Shown here piece by piece: positions 5,046 through 53,394 of a DNA stretch of 64,000 bases. Positions within the stretch are counted from its first letter, which is position 1; each line of letters starts with the position of its first letter. A program made the translations under genes and the position numbers. Source of the DNA: an uncultured virus (IMG/VR IMGVR_UViG_3300017758_004847) (Duplodnaviria; Heunggongvirae; Uroviricota; Caudoviricetes); the IMG/VR virus record IMGVR_UViG_3300017758_004847. One strand, 5' to 3'. The notes beneath the pieces are model-generated. The model was not told the origin of the DNA and did not search any database. It worked only from the letters and a program-made list of their open reading frames with translations.

Positions 5046-5278
5046 TTACTAAATTCCTTCTCGAAGAATTTTTTACCATTCTCATACCCCCATTTTCCAC
5101 TTGCACCATAATCGTACATCTTCCCCGCAAATTTAACCTGATCACCCATACGTTTACGGATCATCTCTTTGACAGCGTAAAATGGGAACTTGGATATGTT
5201 ATCCTCAGTCTTGTCTATCCAACCTTGGACATCATCGTTTAATAACTCCAATGGAGTCTTCATCTTCTTTAAACTCAT
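5042..5278 (-). CDS. Hypothetical protein
   Basis: ATGA overlaps. Confidence 0.65.
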   Translation of the reverse strand: MSLKKMKTPLELLNDDVQGWIDKTEDNISKFPFYAVKEMIRKRMGDQVKFAGKMYDYGASGKWGYENGKKFFEKEFSK

Positions 5279-5790
5279 ATTATTGTTTTTTGATTAACTA
5301 TATTGTTGGGTTTTAACCATAAAATTAAAGACATCCTCTGTCCTTGTGATAATACATTTACTTTATGTTTCACTTGAGAATCGAACATCACAACAGTTCC
5401 CTTTTCTCTACTTATACTTTTTCCTTCTACCACCAGTTCTCCACCGACATAATCTGATGAATCTGATAGTTGAATAATTAAACTTCTATACCTATCTCTA
5501 CCATCAACGTGTTCCTTGAAGAATGACCCCTCATTATATTTTAATAAATGGATCTCATTTTCTTTCTTTAGAGTCTTAACTCCCATCGGTTTAATCAAAC
5601 CAAGTAGTTTATCTCTCTGATCTTCAGTTATTTGTTCTTGAATAATAGATACTTCTGATTTCCTGAAGGATAAATCTTCATACTTTTGTTTTGTGTTATT
5701 TCTTGAAACCGCTGCAACCTCGAATGAATCGGACAATGATAGGATCCAATCGCACTCTTCATTAGAAAGTAATCCCTCAACCTCTAACAT
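5275..5790 (-). CDS. 2OG-Fe(II) oxygenase (PKHD/P4H-like)
   Basis: LLSNEEC, KY..G.FFKEHVD, QLS..SDYVGGEL, KHKV...GQRMSL. Confidence 0.88.
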   Translation of the reverse strand: MLEVEGLLSNEECDWILSLSDSFEVAAVSRNNTKQKYEDLSFRKSEVSIIQEQITEDQRDKLLGLIKPMGVKTLKKENEIHLLKYNEGSFFKEHVDGRDRYRSLIIQLSDSSDYVGGELVVEGKSISREKGTVVMFDSQVKHKVNVLSQGQRMSLILWLKPNNIVNQKTII

Positions 5791-5953
5791 TTTCGTACTC
5801 TACCATTTCTTTTTCATATTGTTTTTCATACATCTTGCATTGTATTCTTCTATATTCACCATCATAGTAGTCCCACTTATCCTGTTTTGTTTGTTGGTCT
5901 CTCCTCTCCTTCATGTATTCCATTCCACGTCTCAAAGTAAGTACTGTGCTCAT
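5777..5953 (-). CDS. Hypothetical protein (58 aa, not in ORF track)
   Basis: MSTVLTLRRGMEYMKERRDQ...; starts 15 nt downstream of a Bacteroidetes promoter. Confidence 0.55.
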   Translation of the reverse strand: MSTVLTLRRGMEYMKERRDQQTKQDKWDYYDGEYRRIQCKMYEKQYEKEMVEYENVRG

Positions 5954-5967
5954 AAAAATATTTTTAT

Positions 5968-5998
5968 CAAATATAATGATTTTGTTGGAATATACAAA
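5968..5998 (-). promoter_or_regulatory. Bacteroidetes-type primary-sigma promoter
   Basis: TTTG-N19-TATATTTG on the minus strand. Confidence 0.75.
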
Positions 5999-6009
5999 CT
6001 TTCGAGCAT

Positions 6010-6040
6010 AAAAAAACCCTCGGGTGTTACGACGAGGGTC
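6010..6040 (-). terminator. Intrinsic terminator downstream of the ncRNA
   Basis: ACCCTCG/CGAGGGT stem followed by a T-run on the minus strand. Confidence 0.8.
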
Positions 6041-6086
6041 CTTTATGGTCTGTTAGTATTAAATACTAACTTCACAATATAATAAA

Positions 6087-6490
6087 AAAGAGGACATGTA
6101 CCAAGGTATGCTATCCTTAGAAATCACATCTGTTGTTTGTTTTACTCATACAACTGTATCGACTATTAAATCGATTCACTTTCGGAGTGTTAATCCTACG
6201 GTGCGGGTACAACCCCTTACAGTTTACTTTATCCCCAACAGAGGGATTATTCGGTCACAAGGTGAGATTTCCTTTCGGGTACTCACAATGAGTTTGAAAG
6301 TAAGCTTTGTTTAAGCTTAGGTCTATGATTACCACTTCCTCCCTGTCGGGACACTTCAACGTCAGTCTTGCGAACATCAGCCAAAGAAGGTAGAACATGT
6401 CTACCTGTCGGTGTGGGTTAACTCCCTTTCGAAGAGTTTATTCCCCCATACACTCAGGACCGTGATGATCAATCTTAGTCCTGCCTCTTT
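6087..6490 (-). ncRNA. Large structured non-coding RNA (~400 nt), family unknown
   Basis: 5'/3' closing helix AAAGAGG/CCTCTTT, about ten hairpins with several GNRA loops, elevated GC, own promoter (6542-6573) and terminator (6010-6040), no credible ORF. Confidence 0.75.
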
Positions 6491-6501
6491 CTATTTCAAT
6501 A

Positions 6502-6531
6502 TTTTAAAGAACGTCTGAGATGTTACTCTCA
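6502..6531 (-). promoter_or_regulatory. rrn-leader-like boxB hairpin plus boxA
   Basis: TGAGA-GTAACA-TCTCA hairpin then GTTCTTTAAAA, between promoter and RNA. Confidence 0.5.
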
Positions 6532-6541
6532 TTTGATGGTA

Positions 6542-6573
6542 CAAATATATAAAGTATTTTTTAATAAATCAAA
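6542..6573 (-). promoter_or_regulatory. Bacteroidetes-type promoter driving the ncRNA
   Basis: TTTG-N20-TATATTTG. Confidence 0.78.
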
Positions 6574-6639
6574 AGAATATTAGAAAAATTTAATTATTTT
6601 TTTATTTTTGTGTTAACTTATTGATTTATAAGGACATAA

Positions 6640-6954
6640 CTATTTTCTATCTCCTCTATTTTTTAATTCTTTATACAGTAAATTTAGTTCACCACACATT
6701 TCATACTCTTCATAGTCTGTTAAGTAACCCATAATTTCTTCAATATCCTCAAGTGTTGGGATCTCGTCTGGTGCCATGAAAAAGAAAGTAAAATCACTAC
6801 CTCGTTCAAGTACTATTTCATTGGAGGTTCTCTTTCCTGTAATTATATTAAAAGTATTATAGACACCCTGTCTAAATTCATCGGTAAAGTTCGCATTACT
6901 TAAACCTTCTAAGTAGTCACTCTCATTAATATTTTCATTGTTATTCATGTACAT
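6640..6954 (-). CDS. Hypothetical protein
   Basis: 104 aa ending in an EEYEMC-type helix; TATTTAT upstream. Confidence 0.7.
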   Translation of the reverse strand: MYMNNNENINESDYLEGLSNANFTDEFRQGVYNTFNIITGKRTSNEIVLERGSDFTFFFMAPDEIPTLEDIEEIMGYLTDYEEYEMCGELNLLYKELKNRGDRK

Positions 6955-8326: not shown

Positions 8327-9577
8327 TTATCTGAATATTGTTATATGACCATTCACTTCAATAATCTCAGGGGAGTTAGATCTCCGACCTTTGATTTGGT
8401 AAAAGTAAACTCCGTCTTGTGCATAATAAGGCCCACCATTTATACTACCATCCCAATAAGGATAAGAATCAAATTCTTCACCATACCCACTATAAATTAG
8501 GTCACCCCACCTATTAAATATTTTAAACTCTACACCAACCCAACATTCCAATTCATAAATTAGTTTCCACACATCATTCATTCCATCGTTGTTTGGTGTA
8601 AAGGTATTAGGTACATAAATGCTACCTTCACCTAAACAAGGATAACCTGGATCATCTTCACATTCTAATCCACTTTCACAATCAATCCAAATCTCTTGCA
8701 AAATATACTCTGTTATAGTGTCTGTAACATATATGTAGTTATCTATCACTACCTCAACATAAGTCGTATCAAATATGAAATTATCTATATAAAGTGTATC
8801 GTATAGATTTATATACTGAGTAATTGTATCGTAAATGTAAACATTTTCGTATTCTGTTGTAAAAATGGTATCAGTAATAAAAACCTCAACATCAACATAG
8901 GTCGTGTCGAATATGTAATTATCTATATACAATGTATCGGTAATATATTCTACGACTGTATCAGGTTCACATTCATCGTAACAAACCATTAATCTATTAT
9001 CATTTATATTAATATCAGGATATAATTGAGTTTGATTAAAACTATTTCCCGCACTCCAACCATCATCAGGAAAATCATCATAACCCGCTGTTTGTGATAA
9101 GTTAATCTGCCATATCACAACTTCCCAACAATATCCCTCAATAGGGGTAGATAAAATACACTCCCAAGCAAATGGTGGATTTATATTAATAGTTGCGGTC
9201 GTACCACTTTCCCATCCACCCCAATTTGTGACATTTGAATATGACCAACCTGGATGAAACGTTGTTGATGTACAATCTGTATTTTCTCCTAAGTCTTCTC
9301 CAGTGATTTCATTTATATAATGAATACCAAAAACAAGATGAGATACATTTTCATTATTATTTACAGAAGTAGATCCATTATCAACGCAAGTATTTCCATC
9401 TGATTGAGTGAATTCATTACATCCACAATTTTCTGCATTAATAAATTCAACCACAAAGGAATGATCATCCGCTGTTGTTGCAGGTGGTGTTTGACTTACG
9501 AGTGTTATATCACAAGTCTGTGCCCATATGAGTGTAGACATAAGAAGGCACTTCAAAGTTATGAAGTGTTTTAACAT
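8327..9577 (-). CDS. Secreted protein with T9SS type-B C-terminal domain (gliding-motility-associated CTD)
   Basis: Signal peptide ending WAQ; IYVPNTFTPNNDGMNDVW..IFNRWGDLIY..WDG..DGVYFY..GHITIFR. Confidence 0.88.
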   Translation of the reverse strand: MLKHFITLKCLLMSTLIWAQTCDITLVSQTPPATTADDHSFVVEFINAENCGCNEFTQSDGNTCVDNGSTSVNNNENVSHLVFGIHYINEITGEDLGENTDCTSTTFHPGWSYSNVTNWGGWESGTTATININPPFAWECILSTPIEGYCWEVVIWQINLSQTAGYDDFPDDGWSAGNSFNQTQLYPDININDNRLMVCYDECEPDTVVEYITDTLYIDNYIFDTTYVDVEVFITDTIFTTEYENVYIYDTITQYINLYDTLYIDNFIFDTTYVEVVIDNYIYVTDTITEYILQEIWIDCESGLECEDDPGYPCLGEGSIYVPNTFTPNNDGMNDVWKLIYELECWVGVEFKIFNRWGDLIYSGYGEEFDSYPYWDGSINGGPYYAQDGVYFYQIKGRRSNSPEIIEVNGHITIFR

Positions 9578-36816: not shown

Positions 36817-38196
36817 ATGAGTAAGAAAAAAATATTATTACTTTCTGATGATATGAGAATGACATCGGGAGTTGCAACAATGTCCAAAGAAATTGTTTTA
36901 GGATCCGTCAAAGACTTTGATTGGGTTCAGTTGGGAGCAGCAATTAAACATCCTGAATATGGTAAGGTAGTTGATCTAAAAGATGATATTAGAAAAAGAA
37001 CAGGTGTTCAAGACGCTAATGTTAAGATCATACCTTATAATGGTTATGGGGATATAGGTAAGTTGAGGTCTATAATTGAAGAAGAAAACCCTGACGCTAT
37101 ATTACATTTTACCGACCCACATTATTGGCAATGGTTATATGACAATGAACAAGAAATTAGGAATAAGGTTCCTTTACTCTTTTATCATATTTGGGATGAT
37201 TTACCTGACCCATATTATAATAGAAACTATTATGAATCATGCGATTGGTTAGGATGTATCTCAAAACAAACCTACGGAATTGTTCATAGGGTTGGGAAGA
37301 GTACTAGAGAGGTAACACACCAACCACTTAAGAATTGGCAAATAAGTTATGTTCCTCATGGAATTAATACTGAAGTTTATAAACCATTAAAGGGTGAGGA
37401 CGAAGAGATGAAAAAATTCGTCCACGGAGATAAGGACTATGATTTCATTTTATTCTTCAATAATAGAAATATAAAAAGAAAACAACCATCAGATGTAATT
37501 TACTGTTATAAATTATTCTGTGATAATTTACCTAAAGAGAAATCTGACAAATGTTTACTACTAATGCACACCTCTTCTTTAGACAAAAATGGTACTGACT
37601 TAGTTGCTGTAGTAAATGAATTATGTCCCGACTACGATGTTAAATTCACCAACGATAAATTCGATCAGTCTCAACTGAATAGAATATATAATACGGTGGA
37701 TTGCACAATTAACATCGCTAATAATGAAGGTTTCGGTTTAACCACCGCTGAGAGTTTATCTTCAGGTACACCTATTATTGTAAATGTAACAGGTGGATTA
37801 CAGGACCAATGTGGTTTTAAGAAAGATGGTAAACTATTAAAAGCCGATGATTATATTGAAATAGGTTCCCTACATCAACGAGGAGTTTGGGAGGGTGACT
37901 TAGAACATGGTGATTGGGTTAAACCAATATGGTCAACATCAATTACATTAAATGGTTCACCTAATACCCCTTATATATTTGATGATAGAATAGAACATAT
38001 CTCTGTGGTAAATGCAATTCAAACAATGTACGACTACGGTCGCAAAGAAAGAAAGAAACGTGGATTGTTAGGTAGAAAATATATCCAACAACACTTCTCA
38101 AGAGAAGTTATGTGTAAAACATTAGTTAAGGGTGTAAAACAAACATTAAAGAAGTTTCAAAAGAAACCAAAATACGAATTATATAAAATAGTATGA
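36817..38196 (+). CDS. Glycosyltransferase, GT4-like
   Basis: YVPHGIN, NRNIKRKQ, EGFGL..AE....GTPI. Confidence 0.88.
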   Translation: MSKKKILLLSDDMRMTSGVATMSKEIVLGSVKDFDWVQLGAAIKHPEYGKVVDLKDDIRKRTGVQDANVKIIPYNGYGDIGKLRSIIEEENPDAILHFTDPHYWQWLYDNEQEIRNKVPLLFYHIWDDLPDPYYNRNYYESCDWLGCISKQTYGIVHRVGKSTREVTHQPLKNWQISYVPHGINTEVYKPLKGEDEEMKKFVHGDKDYDFILFFNNRNIKRKQPSDVIYCYKLFCDNLPKEKSDKCLLLMHTSSLDKNGTDLVAVVNELCPDYDVKFTNDKFDQSQLNRIYNTVDCTINIANNEGFGLTTAESLSSGTPIIVNVTGGLQDQCGFKKDGKLLKADDYIEIGSLHQRGVWEGDLEHGDWVKPIWSTSITLNGSPNTPYIFDDRIEHISVVNAIQTMYDYGRKERKKRGLLGRKYIQQHFSREVMCKTLVKGVKQTLKKFQKKPKYELYKIV

Positions 38197-39449
38197 GTAA
38201 AAAATCATTATTATTTAGAGGACCAGTCAAAAGTTTAAGTGGTTATGGGTCTCATTCGAGAGACCTTTTAAAATCACTTTATGATATGGACTTATTTGAT
38301 ATCATAATAGATAGTACTTCATGGGGTAACACACCTTTAAATGTATTAGATAAAGATGTTTTATTCCATAAGTGGATTGATGATCGTATTGTAACGACTT
38401 TAGAAGAACAACCCGACATTTATATACAATTAACAGTTCCGAGTGAGTTCAAAAGAGTAGGTAAATTCAATATAGGTATAACTGCAGGGATTGAAACTAC
38501 CGTAGCACCCAAATCTTGGATAGATGGTTGTAACAACATGGATTTAATATTAGTTACATCTTCATTTTCAAGGGATAGTTTACTACAAACGGTTTATAAT
38601 GAGACCGATAAAGTTACCACCAAGTTAATCAAACAACACAAGATTACCACACCAATAGAAGTACTTCATGAAGGTGTAGATCTATCCATATATAATAATC
38701 ATAAAAGTGACTTTGAATTAAATATTAAAGAAGACTTTGCATATCTATTTGTTGGTCATTGGTTAAAAGGTGATTTGGGTCAAGATAGGAAAGATGTTGG
38801 GATGTTAGTTAGGTGTTTCTGTGAAAGTTTTAGTGGTAAGAAAGATAAACCCGCACTTATACTTAAAACATCAAGTGCAACATTTTCAATTAAAGAAAGA
38901 GAAAAACTAAGACATAAAATTCAGAATCTAACATCTGATTACGATGACGCACCGTCGATATATCTTCTATTTGGTCAATTAACTGATGAGGAGATGAATG
39001 GCCTTTACAACCACGAAAAAATTAAATCTATGGTTTCGATAACAAAAGGTGAGGGTTTTGGTAGACCGTTATTAGAATTTTCAATAACGGGTAAACCTAT
39101 AATTGCATCAAATTGGTCAGGTCATAAAGATTTCCTACCAATGGATAAAGGTATTATGGTAGGTGGTAAACTAACACACGTACATAAAAGTGCATCGGAT
39201 GATTTTATACTAACATCGGCAAAGTGGTTTACTGCTGACTATGAAGAGTTTGTACAAGTATTAAGGGTGGTATATAAACAATATGAGGATTTTAGTGAGA
39301 GATCTGAGAATCTTAGAAAATCTAATGTTTCAGAATTTTCACTTGAGAAAATAACCTCTGATTTTAAAAAAATATTATCTGGTATTGTAACAGATAAACC
39401 AAAGAAGGTGGATCTTAAAATCCCTAAATTAACAAAAAAAGAAAATTAG
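38193..39449 (+). CDS. Glycosyltransferase, GT4-like
   Basis: SGYG, FVGHW...RKD, GEGFGRPLLE...GKPIIA..WSG. Confidence 0.88.
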   Translation: MSKKSLLFRGPVKSLSGYGSHSRDLLKSLYDMDLFDIIIDSTSWGNTPLNVLDKDVLFHKWIDDRIVTTLEEQPDIYIQLTVPSEFKRVGKFNIGITAGIETTVAPKSWIDGCNNMDLILVTSSFSRDSLLQTVYNETDKVTTKLIKQHKITTPIEVLHEGVDLSIYNNHKSDFELNIKEDFAYLFVGHWLKGDLGQDRKDVGMLVRCFCESFSGKKDKPALILKTSSATFSIKEREKLRHKIQNLTSDYDDAPSIYLLFGQLTDEEMNGLYNHEKIKSMVSITKGEGFGRPLLEFSITGKPIIASNWSGHKDFLPMDKGIMVGGKLTHVHKSASDDFILTSAKWFTADYEEFVQVLRVVYKQYEDFSERSENLRKSNVSEFSLEKITSDFKKILSGIVTDKPKKVDLKIPKLTKKEN

Positions 39450-42552: not shown

Positions 42553-45500
42553 TTAGAAATTACTTGAGTCGAATACTCTGTATCTAATTTTTATAGAGAT
42601 TGAATTAAAACCAGAACCTATTGTACCACTTGTTCTGTGAATTGTTGTCGCTAAGTTATTCCCGTAAGTTCTTCCATTTATAGGAACATCTCTTTCGTAT
42701 ATTACATCACCTCCAGCAGAACTAGCCTGTTGCCAGTTCGAATACGGAAGTTTAGAGATTGTCACTGCTCCTGGTGACCCTGGTTGTCTTAATTCTATAG
42801 CAGAAGCACCACTATGTCTGAAGTTATTCTTTATTAAATATGAAGTTTCATATATAACCACAAATTTTCCACTACCAGGTGCTGATATTATAGTCGTTCC
42901 GTTACCCCCAAATCCATTATTAATTTGAGCTGCTGTATAGGTAACTGTTGTTTCTTGGTATGGGTTAGATGCCGATGAAGTTATATATCCCGCTTGTGAA
43001 TGGTCACCCCATCCATATGCGGTATCCCAATTAGACTTATTATATCCTGTTGTTGTAACTATACCTAACGTATTAATAAAATTAGTAGGTGAGTAGTATC
43101 TAATATATCCATCTCCTGACGCGTATATTCTACTGATTGAATTCGTTCCATTATCTCCACTTGTTGTGTTAATCCATCCCGCTTGAATATATCCATTAAC
43201 ATCAGTACGAACAACTTTGTTTGCTTCATTATTTCTACCTGTATGTAAATCTATTCCATCTAATAAATTTGAATCTGCTGCTTTACCTGAAGTTGATAGA
43301 TAACCTCCACTTGCATGATTTCCCCATCCATATGCGGTATCCCAATTAGATGAGTTATTTGTCAGGTTACCTGAATCCCATATCTTTTTATTAGTACCCC
43401 AAGCGGAATCACTCGTTGCTGTTCTTCTCCATAAATGATCACCAGAGAATATTAATTGTTCTTGTCTGTGACTTGCGTCAAAACTTGCCCACTTAGATAC
43501 TGTTAGTAATGAGTGCCATCCGTCACCTCCAACACCCGTATCAGATGTGTTTTGGAAATCCCATTGTGCGTATCTATCATCATAGTATGATGGTGCTCTC
43601 GCAGATCCTCTACTATCTGTAATGTAGTTTCTATCATTAGTATCTGTTAGTGTACCCGTATTAGAAGTATAACCCGCTACTGAGTGATCTCCCCACCCAT
43701 ACGCTGTGTTCCATTGTGATGAATTACCATGGGATGTTGTTGTTATAGTACCATCTGTCCATATACCCGCTCCAATGGCAGATACAGTAGTACCATTCCT
43801 CATTATTAACATTTGATGATCTAAACCTGATTTAGATTGTCCACCAACATTTGTATGTGTGAACGATATACCGTATAAATTACCAGATGTTGAACCATCA
43901 TCTGAAAGATTATAAGCGGTACCCATAGACCAAACATGTTGGTATTTCGTTGAGGAATATAAACCATAAACACCTCGTCCATAATTGTTGGCGACTAATG
44001 CATGTTGAGTACCCATTGTAATAGTACCCGTAAACGTATCCGCCGTATCACTTCTTAAGAATTGAGTTGAATCTAACGTATCTAATGTAGTGGCATTACC
44101 ACCATCTGGTGATGTTATATATCCTGCTACTGAGTGGTCGCCCCATCCATATGCAGTATTCCAATTTGTAGAACTGTCAGTAAAATTACCACTATGATAA
44201 ACTTTATTTTGGGTAGTTTGACTACCAGCGTATATTTCACCCGTAGTTATTATACCACCATTTACAGTTAAATCTAAATCAACTTTGGCTCTTTCACCAA
44301 AACTTGACCAATTAGAAACGTCACCAGGATCGGATGCATCAGCAACCCAATTTTTTAAAACCCAACCAGCCGTTTGAGCATTACCACCTACAATGGCAGC
44401 ATATACTGAGTTAGAATCCGCATCTACATATACCTGTAAAGCAGCCCCCGCGTAAGTATCATGATCTTTTATTCTTATATATCTAAAGTTTGTACCCGAG
44501 TACCTTGAATTGGCTGTAACAGTTATGTCGTTTGATGTGTCTGTACCAAAATGATGTGATGCACTAAATAGAACAGATTGATGATCGCTTGATGCTGTAT
44601 CCCATATTTGAAACTCCCCTAAAGCTCTATCACCTGTGTTAGTGGCAATTGTATACCAACCAACGGCTAAGTTACTTTGACTGAATGAATCTATGTAACC
44701 TCTATCAAAATAGGTTTTCATTTCTGATTCAGTATAATATCTATCGTCGTGATTATGTGATGGTAACGATGTAAGATAACCTCCACTTGCATGATTTCCC
44801 CATCCATATGCGGTATTCCAATTGGATATATTTAATGCACTACCGAAAACATAAGCGGTATTCGTATCACCTTCTAATTGTAATGGATGTGGTGTTTCAT
44901 AACCACCATCTATTGTGTCACTACCATCTCTGTCGGCAAGTACATAGAAATTATTACTATTAACGTGTATGTAAAAATTATCCTCCGATGATGTATCCAT
45001 GAAAGATATAGTTCCATGTGAACCTTCTATAACAAGAGAGGAATTAGAAAACTTTTTAGTTCCAGATATAGATTGGTTACCCGTTAATTTTACCACACTG
45101 TTGTCAGCGGCATAACCTCCACTTGCATGATCCCCCCATCCATATGCGGTATTCCAATTTCCGTCATTATAAGAAGATGCGTTACTATGTATAACCTCAC
45201 TTAGTGTTAAATCTACCCCACTTGTAGCGTCTTTATAACCAATCATAACACCACCATTGTATGGTGCTTGTAATATTAACTTATCAGCGGCATCATTAGA
45301 TACACCAATAACCATAGCCGCAGACTCACCTGTCGTGTTACCATAACCATATGAGTGAAACTGTATAAAACCATAATCAGAAGGATCATTGATATTAGCA
45401 CCATCTTTTTCTGACTCAAAAAATATCCCACTTCTACCTACACTATCACCTTTTAATACTATGTTAGTACCTGCACTTTGATAATAACCCATATCAGTAC

Positions 45501-48500
45501 CGCCAGAGTCTATAGAACCACCTATTGTAAGTGCTCCCGTTGTCGTATCGTTCGCATCACTTCTTAAGTACTTACTTTGAGTTGAACTTGAAGTTAGGTA
45601 CCCCGCTTGTGAATGGTCTCCCCATCCATATGCGGCATCCCAATTAGTTATATCACTCGATGAAATACCTCCCGCTGCCGATGCGGAGAATACAGGATCT
45701 GACTCAGTAAATGAAGTCAAGTATCTTCCATCGATATCTACGGTGAATGTATCTCCACCATTATTTCTTGTAAATGTAATTACACCATTACCACTATTAA
45801 AAGTCGCACCCGTTGTAAACTCATTTGTATCTGTAAATGAACTTATATATCCCGCTTGTGAATGATCTCCCCATCCATATGCGGTATTCCAATTAGATAT
45901 ATTAGTACTTGAAAAGTCACCATCGTGCCAATACTTCTTCCAAGTTTGTTTTGACCCATTAGCGACGGTTCTTATGTACATTCTACCCGCATCACCACCT
46001 GTCATTTGAATGGCCAAGGTATTACTATAATATGATACAGGGTCACCATGTCCAATTCTTAAAGAGGTGTACCAATCTGTAGTAGGATTTAAATCCAGAG
46101 TACTCTCTTGAGAATTCCAATTTTGCATCCCACCACTACCTTCATTTGCGGTAGATCCTAATAAGAATTTATGGTTGTGTGCTGTTTCTGCATATCTACC
46201 ATCAATATCAACAGTATATGTAGCACCACCATTCTTAGTGAATGTAATTATACCGTTACTACTATTGAATGTTGCGCCTGTTGTGTGTAAAACAGTATCA
46301 ACTGCAAAACCTGTAACGTCTACTGAACCTCCGTTTGATTTATTTAATGTTAATGTTTGGTTGGCATCATTGTATGTTCCACCTGTAACATTAATATCTG
46401 TTAGTGTAGAACTAATGTCCACATTAAATGTGTCACCACCATTATTTCTTGTGAAGGTTACTATACCAGTATTACCATCAAAAGTGGCTCCCGTAACAAA
46501 CTCATTGGTGTCCGTAAATGAACTTATATATCCTGCTAGTGAATGATCTCCCCATCCATATGCTGTGTTCCAATTTGTTGAGTTACCACCATCACCATAA
46601 AAAGTGCCTGCATGTACTTGATACCATCTTTTACTTGAAGTACCTAATAATTGATCAGATTGATTATCACCTGAAGGTTGAACACCTCTATTAAATTGTA
46701 TTTTATTATCAGTTTCATTTAAAGTTATCTCACCCCAACCATTACTGGCTGCATTATATAATCTAAAAGATTTACCTGCGTTAACAGCTACAATACCTGC
46801 AAAACGTGTGTTTTGAGATGCGTCTAATCTTATCGCCTCAGTATTGTTTGTTCCAATAGATAATTGTTCAGAACCGCCTGCGGTTCCTATAAAAGTGGTA
46901 GGATTTACTCCACTACCATTTCTTATTATGAAAGAACCTCTAGCACCTGTGTTAGAGTAAAACCTTGCAATAGTTGAATTGTCGGTGTCTGCCCCTTTAA
47001 CATCTAAAGGATGACTTGGAGACCCCATATTATCACCAATTCCTATATTTCCAGCAAAAGTTGCATCGACATCATTAATTGTTAATCTTACAGAGCCACC
47101 AGATACTACAGCAAACGTCTCGTCATCACTAAACCCAAATTTAGTACCAGAATCGCCAGTGTGGTTTATATAATCAGGTATAGTTAAATCACCTGTTAAT
47201 GTGCCACCAGCTAATGGTAGGAATCTTCCATCGATATCAACTGTAAATCCTGCATTACCTGTTCCCACACCTGTTATAACACCTGTTGATGAATTGAATG
47301 TCGCTCCACTTATATAGTCTATGTCATTATCATTTCCACTATCCGTAACTGTTTCTGTAGCCGTGGTTAATCCTGTTACGTGTCCATTACTATCAAGTAA
47401 TATATCTTGAATATATGTTCTTCCACTATTGTTGGAAGAACTTGCTGCAGATATATTGTCATGTTGAGTATATGTTTCAGTGAATGAAGTAAGATATCTT
47501 CCATCTAAGTCTACATTAAAGGTATCACCCCCATTGTTTCTTGTAAACGTAACAACACCATTACTTGTGTTAAATGTTGCTCCCGTTGTAAATTCATTTG
47601 TATTTGTAAATGAACTTATATATCCCGCTTGTGAATGATCTCCCCATCCATATGCCGTCACACCATTTGCAACATCTGTTGTTGTGAAGTCACCTGCATG
47701 ATGTACACGATTACCATTAACTTGTAATCTGTTATTACCTCTTGTAACATTTACAAGACCATTATGATCAATCGATATTGCGGTTTTTGAACCAGTAGCA
47801 TAACTGTCGGTGGTTGCGATGTACATTTTTGTACCATAAGAACCATCAGACTTTACATATATACCCGCTTGTGCACTATTTGCATCAGATGCGTTGAATG
47901 TAATTGCACCACCCGCATGGTCGTTACTAACACTCATTAAATGAATATTACCTTCACCTAAACCTGGTGTGGTTGCATTCCATATATCAGAACCATTAGA
48001 GTGAGTTCTCCTCCCTCTTGCGGTTACAGTTGATAACGTATCGGTTTCACTATAACTTGTTAGATATCCCGCTACTGAATGATCTCCCCATCCATATGCA
48101 GTATCCCAATTTGATATTTTAGTTGTAGTAACTCCAAATGCCGCATGTGCAGTAAATATAGGATCTGACTCAGTAAACGAAGTTAAAAATCTACCATCTA
48201 AATCAACATTGAAAGTGTCGCCACCATTGTTTCTTGTAAATGTAATTTTACCGTCACTTGTGTTGAATGTCGCACCTGTAACAAATTCGTTTGTATCCGT
48301 AAATGAACTTATGTATCCTGCTAGTGAATGATCTCCCCATCCATATGCAGTATCCCAATTCGATATTTTAGTTGTGGTAACACCAAATGCCGCATGAGCA
48401 GTAAATACAGGGTCGGTTTCTGTAAATGATGTTAGGAATCTACCATCTAAGTCTACAGTAAATGTGTCGCCACCATTGTTTCTTGTAAATGTAAGAACAC

Positions 48501-51500
48501 CATTACTTGTGTTAAATGTCACCCCTGTTGTAAATTCGTTCGTATCCGTGAATGAACTTATATAACCCGCCAATGAATGGTCACCCCATCCGTATGCCGT
48601 GTTCCAATTACTATCGTTGTAACCACTTGCGGTTAGTGTCCCTGTAATTTTTGTATTTGATGTTATCTCTAAACCTGAAGTTGCGGTTGGACTTATTCTA
48701 TAGTAATTACCGTTATGTGTAAAGGTTGTGTATTTACCATTATTGGCCTGACTATAGTGGTACATATTCATACCATTACTCGAATCACCTAAATAAAGGT
48801 GTCCTGTTCCGTTAGGATACAGTTTTAAGTTTGTATCTGTAGGTGTTGATATTTGTGTTGTTGTTAGTTCACCTACTGTAATTGTGTTAGAAGTACTTGA
48901 CCCTCTATCGGTTACACTATCTAATGTATCTGTTTCTGTGAATGAGGTTAGGTATCTACCGTCTAAGTCTACCGTGTATGTATCTCCACCATTCTTAGTA
49001 AAAGTAATTATACCGTTACTTGAATTGAAAGTTGCACCTGTTGTGTGAAGTACGGTGTCTACAGCGAACCCATTTACATCGACAGTACTACCATCTGATT
49101 TGGTAAGTGTTAATGTTTGACTACTATCGTCATATGTACCACTTGTGACTGTTACGTCAGATAATGTATCTAACAATGTAACTGTAAAGGTATCACCGTC
49201 ATTTCTTGTGAAGGTTAATACCGCATTACCACTATTAAATGTTGCACCCGTCACAAACTCATCCGTATTTACTACAGATTCAGTTGAAGTAGTTAAACCT
49301 GTGACATGTCCATTATCATCAAGTAATATATCTTGTATGTAAGTTCGACCACTATTGTTAGACGAAGATGCTGCGGATATATCCTCATGTTGAGTATACG
49401 TTTCTGTAAAACTTTTCAAATATCCTTCAACCGAGTGATCACCCCATCCATATGCGGTGTCCCAATTTGATATTTTACCGTTGGTGATTCCTGCTGATGG
49501 AGATGCCATAAATACAGGATCTGATTCAGTAAACGAAGTTAGGAATCGTCCGTCAATGTCAACCGTAAAGATATCACCATCATTTCTTGTGAAGGTTAAT
49601 ATACCATCACTTGTATTAAATGTCGCACCTGTTGTAAATTCATCTGAACTCACTAATGTTTCTGTGGCGGTAGTTATACCAGTAACATGACCATTACCAT
49701 CGAGTAGTATGTCTTGAATATATGTTCTCCCACTATTGTTGGAAGAACTTGCTGCAGATATATTTGGATGTGAAGTAAGGTACCCACCTAACGAATGGTC
49801 ACCCCATCCGTATGCCGTGTTCCAATTGGATCTATCATATCCTGTGATTGATGTAGTTCCATCAAAGAAATTACCTATTTCTGTTTCAGTATAATATCTA
49901 TCATCGTGATTGTGTGATGGTAAAGATGTTAGATAACCACCTAACGAATGATCACCCCATCCATATGCGGTATTCCAATTAGATATATTAGTTGATGTAA
50001 TCCCGTGAGCTACGTGAGCGGTAAACACAGGGTCTGTTTCAGTATAACTTGTTAAGAACCTACCGTCAATATCAACAGTGAAAGTATCACCATCATTTCT
50101 TGTAAACGTAATAACACCATTTGATGTATTAAATGTTGCTCCTGTAGTAAATTCGTCCGTATTAACAACAGATTCACTTGCAGTTGTAATTCCTGTTACG
50201 TGACCATTACCATCTAATAAAATATCTTGTATATATGTTCTTCCACTATTGTTTGAAGAACTCTCTGCATTTATGTTTGGATGTGAGGTTAGGTACCCAC
50301 CTAATGAGTGATCACCCCATCCATATGCGGTGTCCCAATTTGATATTTTAGTTGTGGTAACACCAAATGCTGCATGAGCGGTAAACACAGGATCTGTTTC
50401 TGTGAATGATGTTAGGAATCTACCATCTAAATCAACTGTATATGTATCCCCACCATTCTTAGTAAAAGTAACAACACCATCACTTGTATTAAATGTTGCT
50501 CCTGTAGTATGTAGGACTGTGTCAACTGCAAACCCCGTTATATCTATTGAACCTCCGTTTGATTTATTTAATGTTAACGTTTGACTACTATCGTTATAGG
50601 TACCTCCCGTAACATTTATGTCGGTTAGAGTTGAACTGATATCAAGTGTAAAAGTGTCCCCGTCGTTCCTTACAAATGTAATTATACCACTACTACCATT
50701 AAATGTTGCACCTGTGGTGTATTCATCATTGTACGAAGTTAGATATCCCGCTACTGAATGATCTCCCCATCCATATGCTGTATCCCAATTTGATATTTTA
50801 CCGTTGGTGATTCCTGCAGAAGGGGACGCTCCAAATATAGGATCTGTTTCTGTAAACGAAGTTAAATATCTCCCATCTAAATCAACTGTCCAACTGTTTC
50901 CGTCATTACGTGTTCCTGTAACAACACCATCACTTGAATTAAATGTTGCTCCTGTTGTATAATAATTATTTGTAGCAAAACTACCAGTTTTACTTTCAAT
51001 ATCATCTAATCTATCATCATGTGATCCACTTGTTACTTCTAATGAATCTAATCTGTTCCCATGTTGCAGTAATTTTGTTTTTTGTGATCCAGTTACTGTC
51101 TCTATCAGATCTAATCTATTATTTTGGGATGTATTAGTGGTTTCAAGACTACCAGTTTTAGTTTCTAAAGAACCTACTCTTCCACTTAGAGTTGATCTCT
51201 CACTTGCATTAGATGATGTATAATCATTAAAATCTGTTCTAAGTGTGGTAACATCACTATCAGTTGCGAATGTATCATCAATACTACCCGTAAATAACTC
51301 TATTAAGTCTAATCTACCATCAACTAAATTGTAATTTGTAGTGTTTGTGATATCGATTTGTACAGAACCACTAACAACTGTCTCAGTATTTAATTTGGAT
51401 TTTACCCCACCTAAAAAATGGTTAGATCCCGTTTCAAGTGTTAAACTCCTATTTGTATCAATAGTACCACCACCTATCAAACCTTTACCACTACCAATCG

Positions 51501-53394
51501 TAATAGTTGAGTGGTCAATATGTTCATTTGCTGAAAAGTTTGTGGTTGTATCGTGATCTATCTGTATAGAACTACTAATAACCGTTTCACTATTTAGTTT
51601 ATTTTTAATAGTTGTATCAATACTACTTGTAAAACTTTCAATTGAACCGCTTGTTGCCTCTAAACTTCCTAATCTACTATTTTGATTTGTGTTGGTGGTG
51701 TCGTTTGAGGAGGTGTACGTATTTAAATCATTTCTTAATGTGGTTACATCGGCATCACTTGCAAATGTAGCATCTAAACTACCTGTAAAGAGTTCTATTG
51801 AACTTAACCTACTATTTTGTGAGGTATCGGTGGTCTCTAAACTACCTGTTTTAGTCTCAATATTATCTAGTCTATTGTTTTGAGATGTATTTGTTGTGTC
51901 AAGACTACCAGTTTTAGTTTCTAAACTATCAACTCTTCCATCTAATGTAGAAATATCTGTTGTTAAACTACCTGTTTTTGTTTCGATGGAGTCAAGTCTA
52001 CCATCATGTGAACCAGATATTGTTTCTAATTCACCTATACGTGTATTATGTGAACCTGTAGTTGATTCAATCTCATTTAATCTTAATTTAACAGAACCAC
52101 TTTCATTTTCTAAAGAACCAATACTTGAATCTATTGTGGTTAAATCATCACTATTGAGTAAACGTTTTTCTGAACCTTTTAAACCACCCTTCCATTGATT
52201 ATCCCCCGTATCATATACAAGTGATCCTGATGTTGTACCAGGCGCTTCAGTGTCTCTAACTTCAATACCCGCATTGACTGCACCACTACCATTCAATGAA
52301 ATTATATTGTCTGCGATATCTACAGTGGTAGAATCTACCTTTGTTTCAGTACCTTTTACTAAAAGGTTCCCTTTAATAGTAACGTTTGACCCTGTAAACT
52401 GAATGCCCGTCTCAACGTCACTTTGAAAACTCTCTAAATTACCAATACTCGTGGCTTGTGAACCACTATTAGTTTCTAAACTTCCTAATCTACCATCCTG
52501 TGTAGTATTTTTAGTTTCTAAACTACCAGTCTTTATTTCAATAGAGTCTAATCTACCGTCCTGTGTAGTATTTTTAGTACTAAGACTTCCCGTGCTTGTT
52601 TCTAAATTATCTAACCTACCATCAAATGACCCTGTCGTTGTATCAAAGGTACTTTTAAACGTACCAATCTCCACACCATCAACATTTCCTGTCAAACTTA
52701 TACTACCTGTGATTATTACACCATTTCCAAAAACTATTGAATTACCATCAGATGATAAAATTTTATTACCTGCAGTAATCTGTATGGGGGCATCTAATTC
52801 AATATTACCCGTACCTGAAGATGATAGTGTTATGTCACCATTTTCCGATTGTAGGGTTATAGTATCAGACCCTTCCTCTAAAATCTTGATTGATTCACCA
52901 TTATCAGTTGTAATTCTTAGTTCCGTACCTGTGGTTGAAATTACTTGTTGTCCATTAATGTATAATGATCCTGAAGATAGGTATAGGTCTCTCCATTGTT
53001 TTGAAGGTGACCCTAAATCAATTGTGTCTGTTAGTTTGGGGATTATTGATACATTTGTTACTAATTCGGTTGACGATATTGATGCTGTTGCTGTACTACT
53101 TGCAAGACTATCTAAACTTAAACCTGTGACCGCTGTAGCGGGTATATCAGTAAGTTCGGAACCATCTCCACTAAAGGAACCAGTGAACGAACCCGTCCCA
53201 ACACTCGCGGTGAATATTTCGTAACTTGATGTTAAAACGTAACTTGCGGCGTGTGATGCGCTTGTTGCTGTCTCCACCGAACCATTAATCTGTGCGGTAC
53301 CATAAATTGTACCTCCCACGGTTAAATCTCCCTGAATATCTGCTGAGGAGGAAACGGACAGGGAACCCGTTATATGTGGATCATATATTTTCAT
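42553..53394 (-). CDS. Giant repetitive tail-fibre/adhesin protein (3613 aa)
   Basis: Coiled-coil RL..LE..TGS repeats, 18 AYGWG[DN]H repeats, TGATFN..GV.TF repeats, SNNSGRTYIQDILLD repeats, HNHDDRYYTE motifs, LDG.D/FLRSD fibre motifs. Confidence 0.85.
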   Translation of the reverse strand: MKIYDPHITGSLSVSSSADIQGDLTVGGTIYGTAQINGSVETATSASHAASYVLTSSYEIFTASVGTGSFTGSFSGDGSELTDIPATAVTGLSLDSLASSTATASISSTELVTNVSIIPKLTDTIDLGSPSKQWRDLYLSSGSLYINGQQVISTTGTELRITTDNGESIKILEEGSDTITLQSENGDITLSSSGTGNIELDAPIQITAGNKILSSDGNSIVFGNGVIITGSISLTGNVDGVEIGTFKSTFDTTTGSFDGRLDNLETSTGSLSTKNTTQDGRLDSIEIKTGSLETKNTTQDGRLGSLETNSGSQATSIGNLESFQSDVETGIQFTGSNVTIKGNLLVKGTETKVDSTTVDIADNIISLNGSGAVNAGIEVRDTEAPGTTSGSLVYDTGDNQWKGGLKGSEKRLLNSDDLTTIDSSIGSLENESGSVKLRLNEIESTTGSHNTRIGELETISGSHDGRLDSIETKTGSLTTDISTLDGRVDSLETKTGSLDTTNTSQNNRLDNIETKTGSLETTDTSQNSRLSSIELFTGSLDATFASDADVTTLRNDLNTYTSSNDTTNTNQNSRLGSLEATSGSIESFTSSIDTTIKNKLNSETVISSSIQIDHDTTTNFSANEHIDHSTITIGSGKGLIGGGTIDTNRSLTLETGSNHFLGGVKSKLNTETVVSGSVQIDITNTTNYNLVDGRLDLIELFTGSIDDTFATDSDVTTLRTDFNDYTSSNASERSTLSGRVGSLETKTGSLETTNTSQNNRLDLIETVTGSQKTKLLQHGNRLDSLEVTSGSHDDRLDDIESKTGSFATNNYYTTGATFNSSDGVVTGTRNDGNSWTVDLDGRYLTSFTETDPIFGASPSAGITNGKISNWDTAYGWGDHSVAGYLTSYNDEYTTGATFNGSSGIITFVRNDGDTFTLDISSTLTDINVTGGTYNDSSQTLTLNKSNGGSIDITGFAVDTVLHTTGATFNTSDGVVTFTKNGGDTYTVDLDGRFLTSFTETDPVFTAHAAFGVTTTKISNWDTAYGWGDHSLGGYLTSHPNINAESSSNNSGRTYIQDILLDGNGHVTGITTASESVVNTDEFTTGATFNTSNGVITFTRNDGDTFTVDIDGRFLTSYTETDPVFTAHVAHGITSTNISNWNTAYGWGDHSLGGYLTSLPSHNHDDRYYTETEIGNFFDGTTSITGYDRSNWNTAYGWGDHSLGGYLTSHPNISAASSSNNSGRTYIQDILLDGNGHVTGITTATETLVSSDEFTTGATFNTSDGILTFTRNDGDIFTVDIDGRFLTSFTESDPVFMASPSAGITNGKISNWDTAYGWGDHSVEGYLKSFTETYTQHEDISAASSSNNSGRTYIQDILLDDNGHVTGLTTSTESVVNTDEFVTGATFNSGNAVLTFTRNDGDTFTVTLLDTLSDVTVTSGTYDDSSQTLTLTKSDGSTVDVNGFAVDTVLHTTGATFNSSNGIITFTKNGGDTYTVDLDGRYLTSFTETDTLDSVTDRGSSTSNTITVGELTTTQISTPTDTNLKLYPNGTGHLYLGDSSNGMNMYHYSQANNGKYTTFTHNGNYYRISPTATSGLEITSNTKITGTLTASGYNDSNWNTAYGWGDHSLAGYISSFTDTNEFTTGVTFNTSNGVLTFTRNNGGDTFTVDLDGRFLTSFTETDPVFTAHAAFGVTTTKISNWDTAYGWGDHSLAGYISSFTDTNEFVTGATFNTSDGKITFTRNNGGDTFNVDLDGRFLTSFTESDPIFTAHAAFGVTTTKISNWDTAYGWGDHSVAGYLTSYSETDTLSTVTARGRRTHSNGSDIWNATTPGLGEGNIHLMSVSNDHAGGAITFNASDANSAQAGIYVKSDGSYGTKMYIATTDSYATGSKTAISIDHNGLVNVTRGNNRLQVNGNRVHHAGDFTTTDVANGVTAYGWGDHSQAGYISSFTNTNEFTTGATFNTSNGVVTFTRNNGGDTFNVDLDGRYLTSFTETYTQHDNISAASSSNNSGRTYIQDILLDSNGHVTGLTTATETVTDSGNDNDIDYISGATFNSSTGVITGVGTGNAGFTVDIDGRFLPLAGGTLTGDLTIPDYINHTGDSGTKFGFSDDETFAVVSGGSVRLTINDVDATFAGNIGIGDNMGSPSHPLDVKGADTDNSTIARFYSNTGARGSFIIRNGSGVNPTTFIGTAGGSEQLSIGTNNTEAIRLDASQNTRFAGIVAVNAGKSFRLYNAASNGWGEITLNETDNKIQFNRGVQPSGDNQSDQLLGTSSKRWYQVHAGTFYGDGGNSTNWNTAYGWGDHSLAGYISSFTDTNEFVTGATFDGNTGIVTFTRNNGGDTFNVDISSTLTDINVTGGTYNDANQTLTLNKSNGGSVDVTGFAVDTVLHTTGATFNSSNGIITFTKNGGATYTVDIDGRYAETAHNHKFLLGSTANEGSGGMQNWNSQESTLDLNPTTDWYTSLRIGHGDPVSYYSNTLAIQMTGGDAGRMYIRTVANGSKQTWKKYWHDGDFSSTNISNWNTAYGWGDHSQAGYISSFTDTNEFTTGATFNSGNGVITFTRNNGGDTFTVDIDGRYLTSFTESDPVFSASAAGGISSSDITNWDAAYGWGDHSQAGYLTSSSTQSKYLRSDANDTTTGALTIGGSIDSGGTDMGYYQSAGTNIVLKGDSVGRSGIFFESEKDGANINDPSDYGFIQFHSYGYGNTTGESAAMVIGVSNDAADKLILQAPYNGGVMIGYKDATSGVDLTLSEVIHSNASSYNDGNWNTAYGWGDHASGGYAADNSVVKLTGNQSISGTKKFSNSSLVIEGSHGTISFMDTSSEDNFYIHVNSNNFYVLADRDGSDTIDGGYETPHPLQLEGDTNTAYVFGSALNISNWNTAYGWGNHASGGYLTSLPSHNHDDRYYTESEMKTYFDRGYIDSFSQSNLAVGWYTIATNTGDRALGEFQIWDTASSDHQSVLFSASHHFGTDTSNDITVTANSRYSGTNFRYIRIKDHDTYAGAALQVYVDADSNSVYAAIVGGNAQTAGWVLKNWVADASDPGDVSNWSSFGERAKVDLDLTVNGGIITTGEIYAGSQTTQNKVYHSGNFTDSSTNWNTAYGWGDHSVAGYITSPDGGNATTLDTLDSTQFLRSDTADTFTGTITMGTQHALVANNYGRGVYGLYSSTKYQHVWSMGTAYNLSDDGSTSGNLYGISFTHTNVGGQSKSGLDHQMLIMRNGTTVSAIGAGIWTDGTITTTSHGNSSQWNTAYGWGDHSVAGYTSNTGTLTDTNDRNYITDSRGSARAPSYYDDRYAQWDFQNTSDTGVGGDGWHSLLTVSKWASFDASHRQEQLIFSGDHLWRRTATSDSAWGTNKKIWDSGNLTNNSSNWDTAYGWGNHASGGYLSTSGKAADSNLLDGIDLHTGRNNEANKVVRTDVNGYIQAGWINTTSGDNGTNSISRIYASGDGYIRYYSPTNFINTLGIVTTTGYNKSNWDTAYGWGDHSQAGYITSSASNPYQETTVTYTAAQINNGFGGNGTTIISAPGSGKFVVIYETSYLIKNNFRHSGASAIELRQPGSPGAVTISKLPYSNWQQASSAGGDVIYERDVPINGRTYGNNLATTIHRTSGTIGSGFNSISIKIRYRVFDSSNF

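Follow-up and report, generated by a model that had tools for sequence, protein, structure and literature searches.

Whether a block of about 410 nucleotides (nt) free of open reading frames (ORFs) on the minus strand of a phage genome is a gene in its own right, what kind of RNA it specifies and how that RNA might act are the questions raised by positions 6010-6573 of IMG/VR record IMGVR_UViG_3300017758_004847. The record is a stretch of 64,000 nt from an uncultured virus of the Caudoviricetes and is called the window throughout. From its letters alone the locus had been described as a stand-alone gene for a highly structured non-coding RNA of the kind exemplified by GOLLD and ROOL, possibly a new class (hereafter, the sequence-only reading). 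The observation is confirmed: with a promoter and a terminator of its own and 49 distinct covarying homologues, this is a free-standing structured-RNA gene, carried by an uncultured and probably large phage from the sea. The RNA itself is, as judged from sequence and covariance-model comparison, of the manA type, with two cores inside one closing stem, and not a new class. The gene is laid out as follows.

6542-6573, minus strand: Bacteroidetes-type promoter, read from the sequence (TTTG at 6573-6570, a 20-nt spacer, TATATTTG at 6549-6542)
6497-6514, minus strand: leader ACGUUCUUUAAAAUAUUG, 18 nt, an element of the boxA type found in leaders of ribosomal RNA operons (rrn); core kept in 49/49 homologues
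6087-6490 (about; 6085-6490), minus strand: structured RNA block of about 410 nt, closed by AAAGAGG/CCUCUUU
6051-6071, minus strand: AU-rich hairpin in the 3' trailer (the trailer being 6007-6071)
6007-6047, minus strand: intrinsic terminator, stem ACCCUCG/CGAGGGU followed by U7
5968-5998, minus strand: second Bacteroidetes-type promoter (TTTG at 5998-5995, a 19-nt spacer, TATATTTG at 5975-5968)

The order of promoter, GC-enriched ORF-free block and terminator on the minus strand, with its coordinates, is as the sequence-only reading had given it. The box at 6542-6573 was compared with what we take to be the Bacteroidetes promoter consensus. The GC fraction is 0.40-0.45 over 6100-6499 versus 0.20-0.35 in the flanks, and only mechanical ORFs of 31-72 amino acids (aa) overlap the block. 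The 3' trailer folds at -23.1 kcal/mol (z -4.28); a terminator consensus scan found none, because the loop of the terminator is 10 nt long. The second promoter follows the terminator and precedes a 58-aa ORF whose ATG is at 5953; ORFs 5777-5953 and 5275-5790 follow the RNA on the same strand. ARAGORN detected no tRNA or tmRNA in the whole 64 kb, and a Rfam scan of the window returned no family at its gathering score, which bears out the claim that the RNA is neither a tRNA nor a tmRNA.

The two cores, their fold and their kinship with manA

In a relaxed Rfam scan the 3' half of the RNA (6103-6287) matched the manA model RF01745 over model positions 1-192, that is, over the full model of 192 positions, at 44.6 bits (expectation value, E, 4e-10), below the gathering cut-off of 55.2 bits. 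Among the relatives scanned, 12 of 15 scored 25.8-49.6 bits with RF01745 and 3 of 15 had no match at E<=0.01; three distant relatives stand above the cut-off (L161, 68.6 bits; L135, 61.4 bits; L110, 61.2 bits). A covariance model of the 3' core (R1) gave 122 bits on the window's own 3' core and 79-84 bits on the distant clade (L109, L110, L112, L122, L135, L161). In the Prochlorococcus phages P-SSM4 and P-SSM2, RF01745 finds one copy per genome (184.1 and 181.6 bits), and R1 matches the same places at 22.2 bits (E 3.5e-4) and 18.7 bits (E 2.2e-3), respectively. That the RNA forms a new class unrelated to known families is barely credible: the lack of a Rfam family at gathering score in the window and the lack of any blastn match, for the locus and for one distant relative, in 50,697 phage records speak for novelty, but the full-model manA match, a chain of homology reaching relatives above the manA cut-off, and model matches reciprocal with cyanophage manA speak against it. 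The Rfam comparison, which had been proposed as a check, gave no family at the gathering score and manA below it, and the suggestion of a new class falls.

The 5' half appears, by the same kind of comparison, to be a second, diverged manA-like core. RF01745 gives 12.2 bits (E 0.54) at 6383-6483 and R1 gives 13.8 bits (E 0.0035) at 6352-6464. When relatives are searched with R1, the strongest secondary match lies on the 5' core, in the same orientation, in 17 of 18 (8.2-14.4 bits; no such match in L233). RF01745 gives 19.7 bits on the L110 copy of this core, and the best non-self matches of a covariance model of the 5' core (R2) are 3' cores and canonical manA, at 9-16 bits. What counts in support of the 5' core, as far as sequence matches go, is that they recur at the same place throughout. 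Each half has the same order of elements, namely a hairpin, a stem with a GAAUAA/UAA internal loop, a three-hairpin multi-branch and a further hairpin. The 3' core alone is without the manA pseudoknot helix, the pseudoknot columns of the model being gapped; helix P3, its apparent counterpart, runs from the linker of the 5' core to the extreme 3' end of the RNA and joins both cores, so the two cores would share a pseudoknot-type helix. The elements of the fold are listed below.

6484-6490, minus strand: P1 closing stem, 5' strand AAAGAGG
6087-6093, minus strand: P1 closing stem, 3' strand CCUCUUU
6455-6483, minus strand: P2, hairpin of the 5' core; both-side change in 4/6 stem pairs
6465-6472, minus strand: P2 loop UUGAUCAU, containing the palindrome UGAUCA; invariant in 49/49
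6449-6453, minus strand: P3 5' strand GUGUA, pairing with 6096-6100; apparent equivalent of the manA 'pseudoknot' helix
6096-6100, minus strand: P3 3' strand UACAU, pairing with 6449-6453
6333-6447, minus strand: remainder of the 5' core, P4 and the P5 multi-branch, with covariation in its helices
6301-6319, minus strand: P6, variable linker hairpin UAAGCUU/AAGCUUA of the window's clade only; other clades have a different hairpin
6144-6293, minus strand: 3' manA-like core, matched by RF01745 and R1
6288-6293 with 6144-6149, minus strand: P10, 3' core
6262-6286, minus strand: P7, 3' core
6226-6255, minus strand: P8, with GAAUAA/UAA loop, 3' core
6152-6224, minus strand: P9 multi-branch of three hairpins, 3' core
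6101-6120, minus strand: P11 hairpin CUAAGG/CCUUGG with conserved loop; both-side change in 5/6 pairs; aligns with the last hairpin of the manA model
6237-6242, minus strand: PK-B loop strand UCUGUU in the P8 hairpin loop, pairing with 6129-6134
6129-6134, minus strand: PK-B 3' strand AACAGA, in the single-stranded tail

Covariation was counted on a plain MAFFT alignment of the 49 distinct sequences, on which RNAalifold places 63 pairs, 33 of them with compensatory change. A curated set comprises 14 helices with 61 nested pairs. In it, 98.9% of cells are paired, versus 87.1% in shuffled alignments and 34-46% when the 3' partners are slid; both sides change in 32 of the 61 pairs, a count reached by 0/500 shuffles and falling to 5-8 on sliding; and the covariation score is 0.430, versus 0.201 shuffled and at most 0.113 slid. 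Four helices require clade-specific registers. With these, all six positions of P9 pair in 49/49 sequences and four covary, and P9a covaries as well. Fitting the 3' core with Infernal gave an alignment of 52 sequences (41 distinct) that leans towards the model; in it both sides change in 28/38 pairs, a count reached by 0/500 shuffles. P4 has the GAAUAA/UAA internal loop and a GAAA loop; the P5 multi-branch consists of hairpins P5a, P5b and P5c (GNRA loop), and its CACC/GGUG pairing covaries (CG 30, UA 18). A P1 terminal duplex of 5-10 bp is possible in 49/49 sequences, in types that include GAGG/CCUC versus GUGA/UCAC. P3 is 100% paired in 48 distinct rows, with variation only from G-C to G-U and no both-side change in the main family; the distant clade (L110), read by eye, has GGGAU/AUCCC at both places. 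The palindromes in the P2 loop also differ in distant relatives (CUGAUCAG in L367, UAAUUA in L110 and L135).

Most helices drawn by the sequence-only reading were retained by covariation or full pairing in the 49 homologues: AAAGAGG/CCUCUUU (P1), AGGAC/GUCCU (P2), GGG/CCC and ACUCUU/GGGAGU (P4), GUAGA/UCUAC (P5a), CCC-GACA-GGG (P5c), GUGAG/CUCAC (P7), AUCCC/GGGAU (P8b), AACUGU/ACAGUU (P9), AUCGA/UCGAU (P9c) and CUAAGG/CCUUGG (P11). Of ACUCAU/AUGAGU (P10) the CAU/AUG part held and the rest did not, and UAAGCUU/AAGCUUA (P6) held within the window's clade but not in the others. The proposed helix GUGU/ACAC is replaced, GUGUA pairing with the 3' UACAU in P3 and CACC with GGUG in P5. Two pseudoknots had been suggested. 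UCUGUU/AACAGA, here PK-B, forms at least 5 contiguous pairs in 49/49 sequences, in four types (UCUGUU/RACAGA, UCUUAU/AUAAGA, AUCCAAU/AUUGGAU and UCUUGU/ACAAGA), with a fifth, CUCUGA/UCAGAG, in the distant clade (L110); it is supported because the sequence types change together. AUCAC/GUGAU was not upheld (best duplex mean of 6.0 bp versus 5.0 bp shuffled, 34% of shuffles equal), and no pairing of the P2 loop to the tail was above shuffles or in a consistent register.

The manA motif was described in 2010 by Weinberg et al. (PMC2864571), where it is proposed as a ligand-binding RNA and the legend of Figure 2 labels a pairing of the P1-P2 linker with the 3' end 'pseudoknot?'. It was filed as cis-regulatory from its position in the 5' untranslated region (5'-UTR) of protein genes (Rfam RF01745; PMC2864571, available text). 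The window RNA resembles it in the order of the core followed by each half, in a probable counterpart (P3) of the helix by which the linker behind the first hairpin reaches the 3' end, and in being marine and phage-borne with reciprocal covariance-model matches. It differs in having about 410 nt and two cores, versus one core of 186-198 nt in P-SSM4 and P-SSM2, in sharing the pseudoknot-type helix between the cores, in the additional loop-to-tail pairing PK-B, and in that the window's clade lies below the Rfam cut-off. The window RNA and its relatives have their own promoter, boxA leader, and terminator or tRNA neighbours, whereas canonical manA stands in 5'-UTR position, and the signals here are of Bacteroidota type, whereas canonical manA occurs in cyanophage and gamma-proteobacterial settings. 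The doubled core, shared helix, free-gene layout and Bacteroidota setting go beyond Rfam's 192-position manA model. Supplements apart, the available parts of PMC2864571 and of preprint 10.64898/2026.07.01.735769 do not contain these features, the word 'tandem' does not occur in that preprint, and among the papers listed by a literature search no title or abstract opening names a tandem or double form.

Canonical manA is wedged between protein genes in both cyanophages, namely pstS and small ORFs in P-SSM4 and regA and purL in P-SSM2. The annotated hypothetical gene PSSM4_169.1 (P-SSM4 164884-165057; L490) overlaps the canonical manA at 164829-165014 (184 bits) and, since it lies inside that RNA, is probably not a gene. 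A tandem glycine riboswitch has two homologous aptamers in one RNA, with contacts between the aptamers. The window RNA likewise carries a structured core twice in a single transcript, the copies touching through tertiary contacts. It is a free RNA without a known ligand, whereas the glycine riboswitch regulates in cis as the leader of an mRNA and has a known ligand.

Leader, tRNA neighbours and transcripts

By its word and its place the 18-nt leader is an rrn-leader boxA-type element: in bacterial genomes it occurs upstream of 16S, which is the place of boxA. Of the 121 bacterial loci returned, 4 have the 16S 5' end 80-108 nt downstream of the word (L405, L423, L480, L435; Schleiferiaceae, Cryomorphaceae, Prolixibacteraceae and one more), and most of the remaining 117 look like chance or coding matches. 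In host genomes it also stands directly before the 5' end of tmRNA (L400, L479) and before tRNAs (L452, L459, L478), so the element is not confined to rrn operons in these hosts. In rrn leaders of E. coli, boxA is described, in the available text of PMC10250234 and PMC4807359, as acting through an antitermination complex of NusB/NusE, NusA, NusG, SuhB and S4. The likeness to rrn extends to what follows the element: a long structured RNA, not translated, with 5' and 3' ends that pair in the manner of an rRNA leader-trailer helix. The differences are that it precedes a phage non-coding RNA here and that in these hosts and phages it is also found before tRNA and tmRNA genes, recurring in tRNA arrays. 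In one Cytophagales metagenome-assembled genome (L391/L392) the word occurs 28 times within 2.6 kb with a period of about 76 nt, which looks like a repeat array with the word inside the repeat, perhaps CRISPR-like.

A pattern search found the leader word in 117 viral stretches, many of the matches being due to chance or coding sequence. The leader is located upstream of tmRNA in three phage loci (L202, L184, L244), of GOLLD-like RNAs in five (L246, L203, L225, L237, L253; 62-99 bits, the matches ending at the locus ends), of Y-RNA-like (YrlA-like) RNAs in two (L200, L366; sub-threshold) and of phage tRNAs (L223, L247, L272, L297, L186/L282), and many other viral copies lie directly 5' of tRNA genes and tmRNA-like 5' ends. 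It often follows a TAnnTTTG box by 22-35 nt and recurs between tRNAs within arrays. In L241, L248 and L278 the TATATTTG promoter box and the leader are nearly letter-identical to those of the window and stand in front of other RNAs, which have no Rfam match at E<=0.001. The leader thus looks like a general 'stable-RNA cassette' of Bacteroidota phages, and, being shared, it places the manA-type, GOLLD-like, tmRNA, Y-RNA-like and tRNA genes of these phages on a single route of host expression.

Of the 48 main-family relatives, 19 have same-strand tRNA genes immediately adjacent to the RNA, 6 of them on both sides. The order tRNA-Ala(UGC), leader and RNA, tRNA-Gly is found in 6 loci (L354, L342, L324, L338, L322, L334), whose tRNA-Gly is called with the unusual anticodon ACC; in the window's clade and the next clade (24 loci) there is no tRNA in the stretch covered. 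In the rrn spacer, tRNA-Ala precedes the spacer boxA and the 23S gene. By analogy, the cassette of tRNA-Ala, leader, RNA and tRNA-Gly may derive from a host rrn spacer. A terminator similar to that of the window follows the RNA in relatives L082 and L086; no U-tract terminator was found in L080-type relatives or in the tRNA-flanked ones. Among those compared, a riboswitch-type expression platform is therefore not conserved together with the RNA, the terminator being present in the window, L082 and L086 only.

GOLLD and ROOL are large ornate RNAs, often phage-borne beside tRNAs, that are reported to form RNA-only multimers (cryo-electron microscopy, cryo-EM, in PMC12286853). The window RNA is like them in being a large ORF-free multi-domain phage RNA with adjoining tRNA genes in relatives, and its 18-nt leader is the one that also precedes GOLLD-like RNAs. 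It differs in lacking a sequence or structure match, in being about half their size and in its manA-derived fold. The covariance models of GOLLD and ROOL gave no match at gathering score in the window, nor any at E<=10 in 5900-6700. The sequence-only assignment to the GOLLD/ROOL kind therefore holds for gene context and not for sequence.

At least 60% of the words sampled from 6000-6560 were found in 20 public runs, 15 of which are on record as RNA, all from marine samples. Four RNA libraries, each from a different study, yielded short matching contigs confined to the RNA, with an overall span of 6095-6521; the flanks are uncovered in three of the four runs, a weak hint about the ends.

6101-6521: RNA-library contig X1, 421 nt
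6106-6488: RNA-library contig X2, flanks also covered at low depth
6122-6494: RNA-library contig X3, depth 50.8
6095-6478: RNA-library contig X6

These contigs hint at a discrete, abundant species of about 370-430 nt that is able to retain the leader. The RNA is a free stable RNA and not a 5'-UTR switch, since its leader matches the host rrn boxA-type element and tRNAs flank it in 19/48 relatives. The promoter, rRNA-type leader, terminator or tRNA neighbours and presence in RNA libraries argue against the cis-regulatory label of manA, at least in these phages. In this locus and its 49 homologues the manA-type RNA is clearly the product of a free gene, and it is seen in marine RNA libraries.

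Possible action of the RNA

The explanation that best joins these results is a free, stable, trans-acting RNA of two cores, expressed by the boxA route and self-assembling into an RNA-only oligomer or shell; taken jointly, it is regarded as probable. Self-assembly as the action of the RNA, which is argued by analogy, is the leading mechanism and is held tentatively, well short of even confidence. In this scheme host RNA polymerase would start at the Bacteroidetes-type promoter, and the rrn-type boxA leader would, by analogy, recruit NusB/NusE antitermination, which would shield the untranslated RNA from Rho. The 5' strand would also be kept close to the RNA exit until its 3' partner emerges, allowing P1 and P3 to close, by analogy with rRNA leader-trailer pairing. 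The 3' end would be set by the intrinsic terminator, and in relatives flanking tRNAs would define the ends of the RNA through tRNA processing. The product would act in trans and self-assemble through loop-loop, loop-strand and GNRA contacts, as a covalently doubled protomer. Candidate interfaces, named from sequence alone, are the invariant palindromic P2 loop and PK-B, with several GNRA loops also on offer. A precedent is given in preprint 10.64898/2026.07.01.735769, in which cryo-EM shows single manA RNAs assembled in vitro into 60-mers, decamers and octamers that are held together by kissing loops and a GNRA-receptor contact.

Several observations weigh against this explanation or parts of it. 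The cages of the preprint (10.64898/2026.07.01.735769, available part) were formed in vitro by single cores of less than 200 nt. Recruitment of NusB/NusE is read only from the position of the motif in host rrn leaders. Single-sequence folding is marginal (minus strand z -1.98, with 3/100 shuffles as stable; plus strand z -1.37), so that the energy comparison proposed with the sequence-only reading came out marginal and the case for the fold rests on covariation, that is, on the 49 homologues and the 32 pairs with both-side change. The 5'-core matches are individually weak (E 0.0035 to 2.3), and the relatives are kin, so 17/18 does not amount to 17 independent tests. The P2 loop is invariant in the main family and so shows no covariation there by which to judge its pairing, and 6-nt palindromes are no rarity in AU-rich loops. 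PK-B, taken sequence by sequence, is not above mononucleotide shuffles, 20% of which do as well. One of the four RNA-library runs (X2) covers the flanks at low depth, and contigs give neither the ends of an RNA nor its strand or level.

The rival explanations share much of this evidence. A trans-acting monomer that binds a host protein or small ligand, or acts as its decoy or sponge, with PK-B and P3 purely intramolecular, would suit a closed compact fold that lies entirely inside P1 and P3 and allows an intramolecular PK-B; covariation cannot separate PK-B within one molecule from PK-B between two copies. The two fused cores could, moreover, satisfy each other's interfaces within one molecule, and manA was first proposed as a ligand-binding RNA (PMC2864571, available text). 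It is nevertheless doubtful: all five of the manA variants named in the relevant section of preprint 10.64898/2026.07.01.735769 oligomerised in vitro, the P2 loop is an invariant palindrome without a supported partner inside the RNA, and the analysis indicated no ligand or protein partner. 

A riboswitch or attenuator acting in cis, in which a signal read by the fold would govern the terminator at 6007-6047 and, through it, ORFs 5777-5953 and 5275-5790, is very unlikely. Promoter, long structured leader, terminator and same-strand ORFs do make up a riboswitch layout, manA is catalogued as cis-regulatory (RF01745; PMC2864571, available text) and the P-SSM2 copy lies between regA and purL; but a second promoter (5968-5998) intervenes between the terminator and the next ATG, the tRNA genes beside the RNA in 19/48 relatives leave no protein gene to regulate, L080-type relatives are without a U-tract terminator, downstream genes vary among relatives, and the RNA-library contigs end at the RNA. 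The RNA could also be a passenger of tRNA arrays, that is, a substrate or competitor of RNase P, RNase Z or other stable-RNA enzymes, or a spacer for precursor cleavage, with no finished particle. Its abutting tRNAs in relatives (the six loci with tRNA-Ala, leader and RNA, tRNA-Gly) and the common stable-RNA leader would fit such a role, which is highly improbable given that the window and 24/24 relatives of the two nearest clades keep the whole fold with no tRNA in the stretch covered, that 410 nt of covarying structure far exceed the needs of a spacer, and that the RNA has no tRNA-like score.

The free two-core RNA that self-assembles is accordingly kept as the preferred explanation. Its fullest form is that marine Bacteroidota phages build RNA-only shells or oligomers in infected cells, the protomer being a covalent pair of manA cores, with the P2 loop as a two-fold contact, PK-B as a contact between copies, and stable-RNA levels reached by the boxA route shared with GOLLD-like RNAs; in this form it is unlikely. 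Since 2010 manA has stood as an orphan 'riboswitch candidate'; its RNA-only cages were shown in vitro in 2026. If RNA shells were formed in infected cells, manA, long filed as cis-regulatory, would be a phage structural RNA and the doubling of the core a way of altering cage geometry. The doubled core with its shared helix offers a natural 'tandem protomer' for comparison with single-core cages.

Homologue searches and the rest of the window

The homologues come from marine phage and metagenome contigs. A probe with the protein at 8327-9577 gave 79 loci, most of which stop short of the RNA, with loose synteny; single-sequence nhmmer against these 79 syntenic loci found nothing, a first DNA pattern taken from the manA-like part had 0 matches, and the neighbouring protein 5275-5790, used as a synteny probe, gave no confirmed locus. 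One related contig matched manA at 27.4 bits and holds the same RNA with swapped base pairs. Patterns from the shared stretches led to 9 viral loci (one a chance match), and a metagenome scan added 63. nhmmer retained 90 hits, among them 83 full-length copies including the window, 49 of which are distinct; a metagenome copy (L337) is identical to the window across the RNA. A loose manA-type pattern gave 92 loci, 14 with the RNA family.

Contigs with relatives of protein 8327-9577 are 161-199 kb long at an estimated completeness of 52-66%, so the source phage is probably large. Its host is probably a member of the Flavobacteriales or of another Bacteroidota group. A distant family member (L367) lies within the first 824 bases of a 63-kb contig binned as Flavobacteriaceae; its RNA is preceded by tRNA-Thr and the leader, is cut by the contig start and scores 107 bits with R2 and 79 bits with R1. 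It is either a hint to the host or a mis-binned phage contig. The window is AT-rich, and its ORFs are mostly without a PHROG match; 2OG-Fe(II) oxygenase-like, glycosyltransferase and carbamoyltransferase genes are encoded. An ORF of 3,613 aa extends over 42553-53394 on the minus strand, and near it are two glycosyltransferase-like genes (36817-39449) and a Nol-like carbamoyltransferase gene (56935-58599).

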